Assembly: GCA_964016885.1 (NCBI GenBank) | Contig: OZ024754.1 | Location: 14,818,001 to 14,882,000 of the forward strand | Direction of reading: 5' to 3' | Origin: Eledone cirrhosa | Lineage: Eukaryota | DNA: 64,000 bases | Shown: in pieces, positions 3,238 to 62,219 of the stretch | Layout of the letters: each line of letters begins with the position of its first letter | Numbering within the stretch: the first letter of the stretch is position 1 | Translations under genes and position numbers: made by a program | The notes under the pieces: model-generated | The model's input: only the letters and a program-made list of their open reading frames with translations | What the model was told of the DNA's origin: nothing | Databases searched by the model: none

Positions 3238-3572
3238 ATATAAGATCAAAAGATGGTTAAAGGAGTTCCATATATTTTATTATGCGCATTTCAAAAACAA
3301 ACATCATCAAGCAATAATATTTGTGTTTTCATCAGATAAAACAGGAGAACATGATATGAAGGCTAAAAAACACTTGTTGATAGTGCAGGTTTAAATCAAA
3401 TATTATTGCTTGATGATGTTTGTTTTTGAAATGCGCATAATAAAATATATGGAACTCCTTTAACCATCTTTTGATCTTATATTATGCATACTCCAGTCCC
3501 ACAAACTGTAGAGTGCTTCTTATCCGATATCTGCATTGCTTTATTGTACTACAATAAAACTCACCTCCTACA
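3238..3572. mobile_element. Family B head-to-head insertion, HHR at 3273-3343 (-)
   Basis: Minus strand: uguuuuau-CUGAUGA-long stem II-GAAA-ugcgca-UA-auaaaaua; inverted partner and tail on +; TA flanks. Confidence 0.88.
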
Positions 3573-3916
3573 TATATATATATATATATATATATATATA
3601 TATATATATATATATATATATATATATATATATATATATATATATATATATATATATATATAATGAATAAAAATAACCAGGATTAAATTACTTTAAATTA
3701 TTTAATTGATTTACGATCGTTTTAATATAGTAGGAAGTACCATTTCATTCCTCTGTACTGAATTCTTCAAAACCATAAACAATATAAAAAAAAAATTATT
3801 TACCAATTGCATGTTTGGATTAAACTCTGAATTCTCTGTTTTACCTGTCTGATTGTGGACTATAAAATCACATTTGAGTTTGAATGTTGAATTATATGGT
3901 TGTAACATCAACTCAT

Positions 3917-4988
3917 CTATATATATATATATATTATATATATATATATATATATATATATATATATATATATATATATATATATATATATATATATATA
4001 TATATATATATATATTGTATATATATATATATATATATATATATATATTATATATATATATATATATATATATATATATATATATATTGTATATATATAT
4101 ATATATATATATATATATATATGTATATATATTATATATATATATATATGTTTATATATATATATATATATATATATATATATATATATATGTATATATA
4201 TACATGTATTATATATATATATGTATATATATATGTATATATATATATATATGTATATATATATATGTATTATATATATATATATATATATATATATGTA
4301 TATATATATATGTATTATATATATATATATGTATATATATTATATATATATATGTATATATATATATATATATATGTATATATATTATATATATATATGT
4401 ATATATATATATATATATATATGTATATATATATATGTATTATATATATATATATGTATATATATATATATGTATTATATATATGTATATATATTATATA
4501 TATATGTATATATATTATATATATATATGTATATATATTATATATATATATATATGTATATATATTATATATATATATATGTATATATATTGTATATATA
4601 TATATATATGTATATGTATATGTATATATATTATATATATATATATATATATATATATATATTATATATATATGTATATATATATGTATGTATATATATA
4701 TATGTATATATATTATATATGTATGTATATATATATATATTATATATATATGTATATATATATGTATATATATGTATGTATATATATATATGTATATATA
4801 TATGTATATATATGTATGTATATATATATATATGTATATATATATGTATATATATATATGTATGTATATATGTATATATATATGTATGTATATATATATG
4901 TATGTATATATGTATGTATATATATATGTATATATATATATATATATATATATATATGTATATATATATATATATATATATATATATA
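3917..4988. repeat. Long (TA)n tract, representative of many (e.g. 22190-22550, 42545-43880, 61250-61614)
   Basis: Simple repeat. Confidence 0.98.
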
Positions 4989-5396
4989 GTTTTGCTGGAC
5001 CGACAATCGCTCTGTATAATCAGTTCCTGATTATTACTGGAATTCTATAAGAATCCAGCCTCTATAATTTTCGGCAGAGGTCGGCGAGTACGTTGCTCTG
5101 AGGATCACCAACAGTGTGAAACAGATCTGTCAGCTTCTCTCCCTTCCTTTGCTGAAAAAGAAGTAAGTGACATAGTCACTACTTTAAAATAATAGTGCAA
5201 GGTCTTCAAAATGTTTTTAATTAAACAAGGTCTTCAAAATGTTTTTAATTAAACATACGGTATATTATCAAATATATTATACATACATTCATATATATAT
5301 ATTTAAATAGATATAAAAGCCATACAATGCATTAGAAAATTAAAGGTGCCAAGATAACGATCGAATTTCACATTAGCAAATTTAACTATATTATAG

Positions 5397-5538
5397 TATA
5401 GAGTTACGGCCCTTGCCATTCTGAGTTCAAATCCCGCCGAGGTTAACTTTGCCTTTCATCCTTATGGGGTCGATAAAATAAAGTACCAGTAATCTACTGG
5501 GTAATTGCTGGCCTTGTGCCAAAAGTAGAAACAATTAT
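5397..5538 (+). mobile_element. SINE S1, 5'-truncated
   Basis: B box and 3' body. Confidence 0.88.
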
Positions 5539-5976
5539 AATATATATATATATAAGGTGTAAATCCTTGAAAGGTTTCAAGGATTTACACCAGTCCAGCC
5601 TCCTGTTATTTTATTTCATTTATAATTAACTCCGTATTCGCACCACCAACTACACAAACGAAGACGGGTGAGCTGCATTACGTTGAGTACTCTTCACAAT
5701 ATTACACCAGGATTGACCATACGGAATGACCAGCAAACCTAAAGATATATATATATATATATATATATATATATATATATATATATATATAATAAATACA
5801 ATATCGGAGAAAGCTTTTTAGCGATACTCCGGCCCAATTCCAACTCACTCAACAAACATTGGAAATAAGTGATTATATTCCCAATTATGCGTTCGGGGTG
5901 CTAACTAAAAGTATTGCGTGGAAAATTGGCTGTATCTCATATGAGATATATCTATTATATCTTATCATCCATTACA

Positions 5977-6036
5977 CATGTCGAACTGACGAGCTGCGGA
6001 AAGTTCTTACCCAGCGAAACACGCGTATTCGACATG
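5977..6036 (+). ncRNA. Canonical-core type I HHR (family I, within insertion ~5798-6170)
   Basis: caugucgaa-CUGACGA-gcug..cagc-GAAA-cacgcg-UA-uucgacaug; perfect 9-bp stem I; GUA triplet. Confidence 0.9.
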
Positions 6037-59329: not shown

Positions 59330-59394
59330 TAAACTATTTATGTCAGCATCTTTATTAGTGTTATTATATATATATATATATAATAACACTAATA

Positions 59395-59588
59395 AAGGGC
59401 GGTGGATTGGCAGTATCGGTAGAGGGTCGGACGCTATGCTTTGACGTATAGAGTTACGGCCCTTGCCGTTCTGAGTTCAAATCCCGCCGAGGTTAACTTT
59501 GCCTTTCATCCTTACGGGGTCGATAAAATAAAGTACCAGTAATGCTCTGGTTAATTGCTGGCCTTGTGCCAAACGTAGAAACAATTAT
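59395..59588 (+). mobile_element. SINE S1, full length
   Basis: A and B boxes; ends in (TA)n. Confidence 0.9.
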
Positions 59589-59607
59589 ATATATATATAT
59601 ATATATT

Positions 59608-59990
59608 TATTAAAATAACAGATTAAAGTTTAAGTAAATAATCGCTGCTTTCACCCTTAACGGGATCTTCTGAAACTAACAAAGTCAATCTGTAAACGCA
59701 GAAGTGGATATTTCCCGTTCTTTGCCAGGGAACGTTTCCACGAACCAAAGTATCGTCTTCCTGTCTTCCTCCGGTTGCAACGTTTTTTTAAATATCCACT
59801 TCTGCGTTTACAGATTGACTTTGTTAGTTTCAGAAGATCCCGTTAAGGGTGAAAGCAGCGATTCTTTGCTTAAACTTTAATCTGTTATTTTAATAAATAT
59901 TTGCTCTACGGTTCTTATATATTTGATATATATTTATCCTTATCGAGCCCTCTTTCGATTTTAGTCTTCAAATTTATTATTATTACTATA
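59608..59990. mobile_element. Family G head-to-head insertion, HHR folds at 59627-59677 (-) and 59826-59876 (+), core CAGAAGA
   Basis: aguuu-CAGAAGA-uccc guuaa gggu-GAAA-gca..ugc-UU-aaacu. Fragments also at 6402-6470, 25250-25393 and 43085-43180. Confidence 0.8.
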
Positions 59991-60053
59991 TATATATATA
60001 TATATATATATATATATATATATATATATATATATATATATATATATATATAT

Positions 60054-60466
60054 AATATATAAGAACAAAAGATGGTTAAAGGAGTTCCATGTATTTTATT
60101 ATGCGCATTTCAAAAACAAACATCATCATGCAATAATATTTGTGTTTTCATCAGATAAAACAGGAGGACATGATATGAAGGCTAAAAAACACTTGTGGAT
60201 AGTTCAGTTTTAAATCAACATATGAACTATCCACAAGTGTTTTTTAGCCTTCATATCATGTCCTCCTGTTTTATCTGATGAAAACACAAATATTATTGCA
60301 TGATGATATTTGTTTTTGAAATGCGCATAATAAAATACATGGAACTCCTTTAACCATCTTTTGTTCTTATATATTATGTATACTCCAGTCCTACAAACTG
60401 TAGAGTGCTTCTTATCCGATATCTGCATTGCTTTATTGTACTACAATAAAACTCACCTCCTACATT
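60054..60466. mobile_element. Family B head-to-head insertion with two complete HHRs (60092-60162 -, 60267-60337 +)
   Basis: Long inverted arms; CUGAUGA at 60275-60281, GAAA at 60318-60321, palindromic UGCGCA in stem III. Confidence 0.9.
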
Positions 60467-62219
60467 ATATATATATATATATATATATATATATATATAT
60501 ATATATATTATTTATACTTATATATGGTTTATATATAATTATAAATATGGAGGGTAGTACTAAGCACCGGTAAGAGAAAAGGCTCAATGTAAATTATCAA
60601 ATGTATTACAGAGCCGAGATGCAAAATATAAAACAAAATCAAATCTTAGTTTAAAACATTTAATTGCTGACAATTGTTTCCTCCAGATGAATGTCTGGAA
60701 GAAACAATTGTCAGCAATATATATATTTGTGTGTGTGCTGTGTGTGGTATGTGTGGGTGTGGGGGTGTGGGGGTGCTAGTTTGCATGTGTTGGTGTGGGT
60801 GAATGTCACATACGGAGATATCGATAGATATTGGATGATTTCCGAGTGGCGTCACAAGCGGAGGAATGTGAGTGGAATTGCAGATAAAAATGTGAGTGGG
60901 ATTTGATGTTCCTACAAATTGTATAATATTTCAACACCATCATCTTTGTAAGAAGGTGCGGGTACATTGTTTATTTTGCGTCTCTCTCTCTCTCTTTCTC
61001 CCCTCTCTCTCTCTCTCTCTCTCTCTCTCTCTCTCTCTCTCTATATATATATATATATATATATATATATATATATATATATGGGGGGGGGGGGGTTGTT
61101 AGTGTGTGTGTAGGTGGTGCGTTTTGTTTTACACAAGGTTCACATGTTTTCTAAACATTGTATGACTAAGATATACGCTCCTTTCAAAATAGGTATATAC
61201 ATATGTGTGTGTGTGTGTGTCTGTGTGTGTGCGTGCGGTGTCTATATATGTGTGTATATATATATATATATATATATATATATATGTGTGTATATATATA
61301 TATATATATATATATATACATATATACATATATATATACATATATACATCAATATATATATATATATATATACATATATATATACATATATATACATCAA
61401 TATATATATATATATATATATATATATATATATATATATACATATATATATATACATATATATATATACATATATATACATCAATATATATATATATATA
61501 TATACATACACATATATATATATATATACATACACACATATATATATATATATATATATATATATATATATATATATATATATATATATATACACATATA
61601 TATATATATATATAAGTGGTTACACAACAGTTAGTTCACCATGCCGAGAACAAACTGTTGTGTAACCACTTCTACCTAACTCGTCCCATGGACGGATATT
61701 TCCTTGCAGTGTTCCACCACTATATATACATATATATATCAGAATTAGCCGTCGAAACGGCTTGAGCTCAGCCGTCGGGGTCCTACTCGTTCCTATATAT
61801 ATATATATATATATATATATATATATATATATATATGTATATATATATATATATACACATATGTATATATGTGTGTGGGTTAAATTCCTATGATGTATTT
61901 CAGTAGTTGATATCCTCTCTTCCCCATCAGTTGACCTGTGTGAGGCAGACATATAATGGGGTGAGACTATTCCTTGTTTTTACGACAATATCAAATATAA
62001 TTTGCAGGGTATTTTAAAGGAAGTAGTATATAGTTTGAGTATTTAGTTGGTATTTCTATATTTCTACCAGTTTCATCCAACAAACAATGCGAGGACACCT
62101 ACAGTTAAATGTATACTCACTTATCAGTTTATGTCTGATCTCATTCGCCTGTAGTAACAGAAAAGCTGTCTAATCTAGAAATGTCTGTGTGTCTATGTGT
62201 ATGTATAAACTGTGAACAT

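Follow-up and report, generated by a model that had tools for sequence, protein, structure and literature searches.

Twin bulged hairpins at the insertion ends of Hydra-clade Penelope-like elements in Eledone cirrhosa: a probable recognition signal for reverse transcription

Why should many otherwise dissimilar retrotransposon families share one small hairpin? The question is raised by a stretch of 64,000 nucleotides of the Eledone cirrhosa genome (assembly GCA_964016885.1, contig OZ024754.1, positions 14,818,001 to 14,882,000 of the forward strand), hereafter the window, from the first letter of which all coordinates below are counted. An earlier note on this DNA had described, in the 3' tails of 11 Penelope-like element (PLE) families, a 4-bp basal helix RCUC/GAGY with a 2-nt bulge beginning with U on its 3' strand and a variable upper stem-loop. 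We found that this hairpin can occur twice per element, as a first (HP1) and a second (HP2) copy some 55-90 bases from each other, and that insertions end a few bases 5' of each. These observations suggest that each hairpin probably binds the reverse transcriptase (RT)-endonuclease of the element and fixes an internal start of reverse transcription.

All 11 hairpins are present at, or within 1 nt of, the coordinates claimed for them; for family D the hairpin stands and its position is corrected to 8812-8830, and for family G it stands with only two clean pairs above the bulge, its detection having needed a covariance model. A strict scan, which required the basal helix, the 2-nt 3' bulge beginning with U and at least three further pairs, returned 24 rows in the window, i.e., 21 distinct hairpins (three rows are nested alternatives), against a mean of 1.7 (maximum 5) in 20 block-wise dinucleotide shuffles; when four upper pairs were required, the count was 13 compared to 0.85 in shuffles. 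The covariance model detected 23 window sites at E-values up to 1, eight of which had been in its training set, and missed family H. Elsewhere in the genome, 39 arbitrary 10-kb stretches contained 47 strict hits versus 18.0 in shuffles, and 29 versus 6.2 with four upper pairs. The motif extends into its 3' flank, where RCU followed by N and U is conserved, and a dinucleotide run begins 25-90 nt downstream in 54 of 71 hits, versus 8.5% of 8,571 random positions. Because families M and Z are related (88% over the 49 nt upstream of the hairpin), the number of dissimilar families is about ten rather than 11. The proteins of the six families with pieces of an open reading frame (ORF), namely E, B, A, G, D and Y, share 31-56% identity, and therefore the motif is inherited, not convergent. 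The hairpin was also correctly placed downstream of the hammerhead, whose core precedes it by 66-109 nt in families E, B, A, D and Y. Rfam 15 gave no match in the window at the gathering score, and on 20 loci only two Hammerhead_1 matches and none to the hairpin. Rfam matches by E-value (microRNA families driven by microsatellites or palindromes, and a weak pestivirus untranslated region, UTR) were judged to be due to chance.

To judge by their sequences, the carriers of the hairpin are PLEs of the Hydra clade. The window contains one whole ORF (family E, 26960-29122, minus strand, 720 aa), and RT and C-terminal GIY-YIG-type endonuclease motifs can be read directly in this single frame. A Pfam search of the query ORF gave no match, and PF01541 is carried by the top homologue. 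An intact family E copy, L011, shows the motifs listed for the Hydra clade (Craig et al. 2021): the CxCx5C linker is present, and CxxC and CxH flank the conserved E and N. The window copy, unlike L011, is without the last Cys of the linker motif. The E, B and A proteins have both an RWK-type motif at the N-terminus and DKT instead of DKG; of 16 foreign proteins checked, 12 have both features and 15 have DKT. The best structural match of the predicted model of the L011 protein (pLDDT, i.e., predicted local distance difference test, 87.6) is TERT, the telomerase RT. Both a hammerhead in the pseudo-long terminal repeat (pLTR) and insertion into (TA)n are present, whereas the family E unit, at 3,531 bp, is longer than the Hydra clade, which is "generally" under 3 kb. 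At least 58 genome copies of family E have 98-100% identity, most with ORFs without stops, and some are tandem with a period of 3,531 bp (L011, L012); family E is young. The family E hammerhead (25765-25860, minus strand; predicted cut 25 nt 5' of HP1) folds as a type I three-way junction. Its core is a variant, with a paired U/A change apparently at what we take to be two positions that are usually C and G. No relatives were found in viral contigs.

The positions of insertion ends were determined in a 984-kb sample that comprised the window and 10-kb stretches of DNA, 33 of them neighbouring and 59 scattered. A position of -14 to +3 from a hairpin start was found for the alignment ends in 80/90 cases for family E, 27/28 for B, 31/39 for G, 38/63 for A and 30/58 for D. 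For ends joined to (TA)n, 150 of 163 in these five families were at -10 to +1 of either hairpin start (E 68/68, B 23/23, G 23/25, A 21/27, D 15/20), and only 5 of 66 other nearby TAT sites were used as ends. Genome-wide, exact patterns for family E, all of which give lower limits, matched at least 19,901 ends before HP2 and at least 14,399 before HP1, versus at least 16 at a control TAT inside the tail. There are thus two sharp classes of ends, short and long, one at each hairpin foot. In the family E copy of the window, HP1 (25722-25745, minus strand) lies in the 3' pLTR; the TAT at its foot (25751-25753, minus strand) is the short-end site and the putative first start, and the spacer (25671-25721, minus strand) leads from HP1 to the long end, the putative second start, which is joined to (TA)n. 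The spacer together with HP1 is best read as the known optional "tail" of PLEs. Empty target sites, which would show whether the TA runs were there beforehand or come from the RT, were looked for and not found.

The second hairpin, absent from the earlier note, occupies 29188-29209 of the window (minus strand) and precedes the ATG of the family E ORF by 66 nt. The general order is hammerhead, TA-rich foot, HP1, spacer, TA-rich foot, HP2 and ATG; a tandem family E unit reads ORF, 3' UTR, type I hammerhead, 25 nt, HP1, 54 nt, HP2, 66 nt and ATG. Since the usual long end of family E insertions is 3 nt 5' of HP2, the latter is normally uncopied. The placement of the motif in the 3' tails accordingly holds for the listed hairpins, each of which opens a tail, and not for the second copy, just past the long end. 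Of 30 family E loci, 29 have a tail that continues without interruption into HP2; the exception is the window's own copy. HP2 was then predicted for other families, and eight families were searched in all. For family B, a junction pattern that specified only the first four letters had 283 matches; 96 of the 100 matches listed share one continuation, which leads into HP2 and a Hydra-type ORF. With search patterns that left the hairpin unspecified, HP2 was found in 9 of 14 fetched loci of family A, in two of three inspected loci of family G (its 3' strand being deleted in the other) and, among the matches listed, in 6 of 7 of family Y. The second element of family D is a plain 5-bp stem without a bulge in 4 of 7 fetched loci, which makes this family a natural test of what the protein requires.

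The pairing of the upper stem was assessed in 74 distinct motifs, with no pairing imposed above the bulge and 2,000 partner shuffles. Anchored counts were used because MAFFT misplaces gaps in short hairpins; it should be noted that counts on a model-fitted alignment are biased towards structure. Upper positions 1 to 4 were paired in 71/73, 56/70, 44/52 and 25/40 motifs, compared to 54.5, 30.8, 20.7 and 14.9 in shuffles; at each of these positions none of the 2,000 shuffles matched the observed pairing, and position 5 was at chance. The covariation reported for the first basal pair was borne out and extended, with G-C, A-U and U-A at this pair, and the third pair shows a double change from U-A to A-U. 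A descriptor without stem sequence recovered 42 G-C variants, four U-A first-pair variants, two A-U third-pair variants and five singletons, versus three antisense hits; the A-U first pair was contributed by the window. There is hardly any variation at basal pairs 2 and 4 or at the bulge U, as would be expected for a site that a protein reads by its sequence. In about half of the copies, the 3' strand of the hairpin and its flank form a self-complementary octamer, which could allow pairing between HP1 and HP2 or between molecules.

Is the arrangement confined to this genome? We found 2,049 homologous proteins and collected 97 foreign loci, which lie in metagenome contigs or in contigs of prokaryote bins and represent 76 families at 80% DNA identity. 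Strict hits in the foreign flanks were 46 in sense versus 4 in antisense orientation. The covariance model gave 128 hits in 66 of the 97 loci and 51 of the 76 families, 44 foreign hairpins having belonged to its training set; most of the 31 loci without a hit are without the relevant flank. There are 41 tandem hairpin pairs in 32 families, 53-83 nt apart; of 40 pairs checked, 33 have an HP2 that ends 10-42 nt 5' of the ATG. Among 36 3' copies that can be aligned to the 5' region of their own family, 21 end at a foot (three of these at a contig end); the remaining 15 end elsewhere, nine at contig ends and six not. In the accessible portion of File S7 of Craig et al., the Hydra-1_Ajap (sea cucumber) consensus has, by eye, both hairpins at its 5' end, Hydra-2_Ajap and Hydra-2_Amil have one clear hairpin each near their 3' ends, and the other three of the six Hydra consensi have an imperfect hairpin or none. 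Three 9-mers had six hits in this file, four in the six Hydra consensi and two inside coding-like sequence of Naiad or Chlamys, although line breaks may hide further hits. Twenty Hydra-type loci (L159-L178) are in prokaryote genome bins, several of them from invertebrate symbionts; such contigs are probably host DNA.

If each hairpin foot is a start, the two kinds of ends should be considered together in head-to-head insertions. There are 64 such pairs, with at least one local duplicate among them: 61 combine a long and a short end, two have two long ends and one has two short ends, an excess of long-short pairs over the expected share of 0.50 (p about 1e-15). Among the 61 mixed pairs, there are 29 whose short arm extends further 5', 6 whose long arm does so and 26 with arms of equal reach. 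In nine pairs, the arms have no overlap at all, and therefore one arm is not a copy of the other. The fold-back of a single cDNA cannot account for the 29 longer short arms, barring a later deletion of the centre on one side; most likely, therefore, RNA was the template of both arms. The arms also share fixed 5' limits in the 984-kb sample (-55 to -69 from HP1 in 26 of 29 short arms of family E; -168 to -179 in 12 of 13 for family B), which could be transcript starts, RT stalls or, in part, subfamily boundaries. The notion that HP1 halts the long arms was set aside because these limits may reflect breaks in the alignment of different subfamilies.

The strand-specific position, the covariation and the fixed distance to the ends agree with the view that the motif is a cis-acting RNA element and probably an RT recognition signal. 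The suggested analogy to a template boundary does not hold in the form given: the first base to be copied lies 5' of the hairpin, and in long-end copies synthesis passes through HP1. We envisage that the endonuclease would nick both strands of a (TA)n target, that the protein would bind the base of the hairpin, and that the nicked (TA)n 3' end would pair with the adjoining UA-rich foot and prime its own cDNA. Synthesis would proceed 5'-ward, with HP2 serving one DNA end and HP1 the other. The two 5'-truncated cDNAs would then be joined head-to-head, and only the arm begun at HP2 would contain HP1 and the spacer, i.e., the one-sided tail. Full units might arise from transcripts that run through tandem copies, and the very common short fold-backs from priming near the transcript 5' end. 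That two protein subunits act at once is plausible and is the most speculative step. A fuller version of this scheme is put forward tentatively, as somewhat less probable than its opposite: a dimer of the RT-endonuclease would dock at the twin hairpins and prime the two ends of a double-strand cut simultaneously, each from a built-in start of its own. The RNA would in this way itself specify the head-to-head, one-tailed insertion, and such RNA-anchored internal templating would be a living counterpart of the step towards telomerase.

Several observations weigh against the proposal that each hairpin fixes a start. The long end of family D is sharp despite the bulge-less second hairpin (L205-L208). 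HP2 was not found in family X by the junction search (no matches), nor in family M, where five matches contained no junction, the assumed end having been too short; the search took in the eight families E, B, A, G, Y, D, X and M. Among the foreign loci, L131 and L158 have an ORF start with its flank and no canonical pair. Plain alignment ends lie elsewhere in 25 of 63 cases in family A and 28 of 58 in family D, probably due to subfamily divergence. The near invariance of basal pairs 2 and 4 makes them uninformative about pairing. Folded alone, 8 of 12 hairpins adopt the bulged form, with z from -0.8 to -3.5, and in context the basal pairs have a probability of only 0.05-0.07 in the HP1 of families E and D and of 0.2-0.5 in three others. 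Such marginal stability speaks against a free-standing block; it fits an element stabilised by protein, yet it weakens the case. The 26 pairs with equal arms would be expected from fold-back, too. Finally, no such motif is present in the start region of the PLE of the anole as printed in the Frangieh supplement, and the signal may therefore be specific to the clade.

How do other explanations fare? We consider it unlikely that the motif acts as DNA, as single-stranded cDNA or an extruded stem, guiding an endonuclease cut at the adjoining TA so that the ends are cuts. The self-complementary octamer in about half of the copies would suit such a role, the tail is put down to resolution mediated by the endonuclease in the accessible text of Craig et al. 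2021 (PMC8557442), and the anole enzyme also nicks its own pLTR according to the available parts of its description (PMC11167929). Yet HP2 is missing from long-end insertions and must therefore act no later than priming; at upper pairs 1-3 of the motifs listed, G-U exceed A-C oppositions by 9 to 1, which favours the sense strand; and, in the same source on the anole element, the tail ends are measured RT starts.

Less probable still is a single start at the foot of HP2, with the short end arising by a fold-back second strand that stopped or was trimmed at an HP1 boundary, a scheme close to the boundary idea of the earlier note. Equal reach of the arms in 26 of 61 pairs is what it predicts, self-priming has been proposed for PLE inversions (PMC3846280, in the part accessible), and the family A copy adjoining the window ORF has a short true fold-back. 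It is opposed by the 29 of 61 short arms with sequence missing from the long arm and the nine pairs without overlap, as well as by the single consensus and single distance to ends that both hairpins share. A service in transcription or translation, as part of the pLTR promoter or the 5' UTR, with ends gathering only at unpaired UA-rich stretches, seems very improbable. It would accommodate the 10-42 nt between HP2 and the ATG, the promoters that pLTRs contain (same partial source, PMC3846280) and the fixed 5' limits common to the arms, and it leaves unexplained the strict long-short pairing; moreover, the AT-rich flanks have 66 other TAT sites, of which 61 are unused, and the predicted unpairedness of the feet varies from 0.29 to 0.92. 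That the motif is a neutral inherited word or a chance match can be dismissed as barely conceivable and is already refuted by position and covariation: the motif is short, its carriers share ancestry and about a third of the loose hits in arbitrary DNA are due to chance (18 expected of 47), but it is kept twice per element, between proteins 31-56% identical, amid unalignable flanks and with covarying stems.

The other hairpins recorded in the window are those of HP1. A head-to-head family E insertion (14693-14888) has a long arm with HP1 (14744-14767, minus strand) and a short arm that ends at the HP1 foot; more HP1 copies of this family are at 16259-16282, 22084-22107 and 53649-53672 (minus strand). 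A head-to-head family B insertion (3228-3573, HP1 at 3490-3514) has a short arm that exceeds the long one by 77 nt on the 5' side, and a second family B insertion spans 60047-60467 (HP1 at 60382-60406). HP1 of family D at 8812-8830 is on the plus strand, with a mirror copy at 8714-8732 (minus strand), and further copies are at 16601, 21858, 46396, about 46882 and 55117. On the plus strand are also HP1 of family X, with a long upper stem (5629-5688); of family H (16046-16109), where the inverted arm ends about 2-8 nt 5' of the hairpin; of family C' (24445-24484), where inverted arms end about 4-8 nt 5' of it; of family A (29419-29437, hammerhead core 29313-29354; also at 38836-38855); of family M, with an unusually long tail (54748-54781); of family Y (57145-57165), whose HP2 has a long upper stem in junction copies; and of family G (59903-59948), within a head-to-head insertion at 59603-59989. 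HP1 of family Z, the relative of M, is at 60582-60614 on the minus strand.

Different families are nested in each other's flanking TA runs (24908-25673 and 59603-60620). At 29210-29500, the start of the window ORF copy coincides exactly with its own long-end site, and the copy is joined to a family A insertion by way of a 27-bp fold-back and 3 nt of microhomology; either A inserted at the TA foot of E, or the RT switched templates. A 381-bp tandem repeat of 2.6 copies (7268-8239) has a hammerhead core per unit on the minus strand (7538-7575, 7919-7956) and, by its sequence features, appears to be a retrozyme-like array derived from a PLE end. A 23-bp minisatellite at 9593-13463 has 168 copies with 95% matches.

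How PLEs choose their RNA and why their inverted copies are one-tailed is an open question; one in vitro study located two starts, not the signal. A motif of roughly 25 nt at an exact distance from both starts, with natural variants, makes the mechanism directly testable, and family E, young and intact with tens of thousands of ends, provides a test system. With the motif, Hydra-clade ends can also be annotated by an exact rule, and it offers a portable handle for RT-based writing of DNA into TA repeats as well as a concrete putative RNA-protein interface for comparison with telomerase.

The proposed arrangement can be compared to several known systems. In twin priming of L1, two primings on one transcript produce an inversion, and the second site is opportunistic. 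The epsilon element of hepadnaviruses is a bulged stem-loop that binds the RT and fixes an internal start, with the bulge as template and a protein as primer. In the PLEs, by contrast, both sites would be fixed and DNA-primed at the hairpin foot. The 3'-tail stem-loops of stringent long interspersed nuclear elements (LINEs), i.e., UnaL2 and zebrafish L2 as described in the accessible parts of PMC1636434 and PMC4176376, are likewise small, recognised by protein and close to the priming site. However, the LINE stem-loop is single and at the RNA 3' end, whereas the PLE hairpins are twin, internal and 10-42 nt before the ATG, with a conserved base and a free upper part, and are located 3' of the first copied base. 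The telomerase boundary helix lies 5' of the template and stops synthesis (PMC4993307, as far as its accessible text goes); the PLE hairpins, conversely, are 3' of the insertion ends, and HP1 is copied in long-end arms.

The closest functional parallel is Poseidon of Anolis carolinensis. According to the available portions of PMC11167929, its protein nicks and extends both strands of AT-rich DNA, two internal starts delimit the tail and agree with where genomic copies end, RNA located 3' of these starts is needed, hammerhead cleavage is dispensable, and a dimer is predicted. The likeness thus consists of two internal starts bounding a tail, both strands nicked and extended, and required RNA 3' of the starts. 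Poseidon differs in belonging to another clade and in having its starts inside the ORF, in one AC-rich stem-loop; its binding motif is undefined, and the same portions report no repeated or cross-family motif. The Hydra clade of PLEs with a C-terminal endonuclease (EN+), as presented in the accessible text of PMC8557442, is alike in protein motifs, pLTR hammerhead, (TA)n insertion and tandem or inverted structure; the words "hairpin", "stem-loop" and "initiation" are absent from that main text, in which the search was limited to hammerheads. No description of the motif was found in the full-text literature searched on PLEs, hammerheads, retrozymes and octopus repeats, to the extent accessible, with subscription papers, Repbase notes and figure images outside this search. 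Both the class of element and the notion of a stem-loop recognised by the RT are known, whereas the motif, its doubling and its link to both ends of the tail appear to be new.

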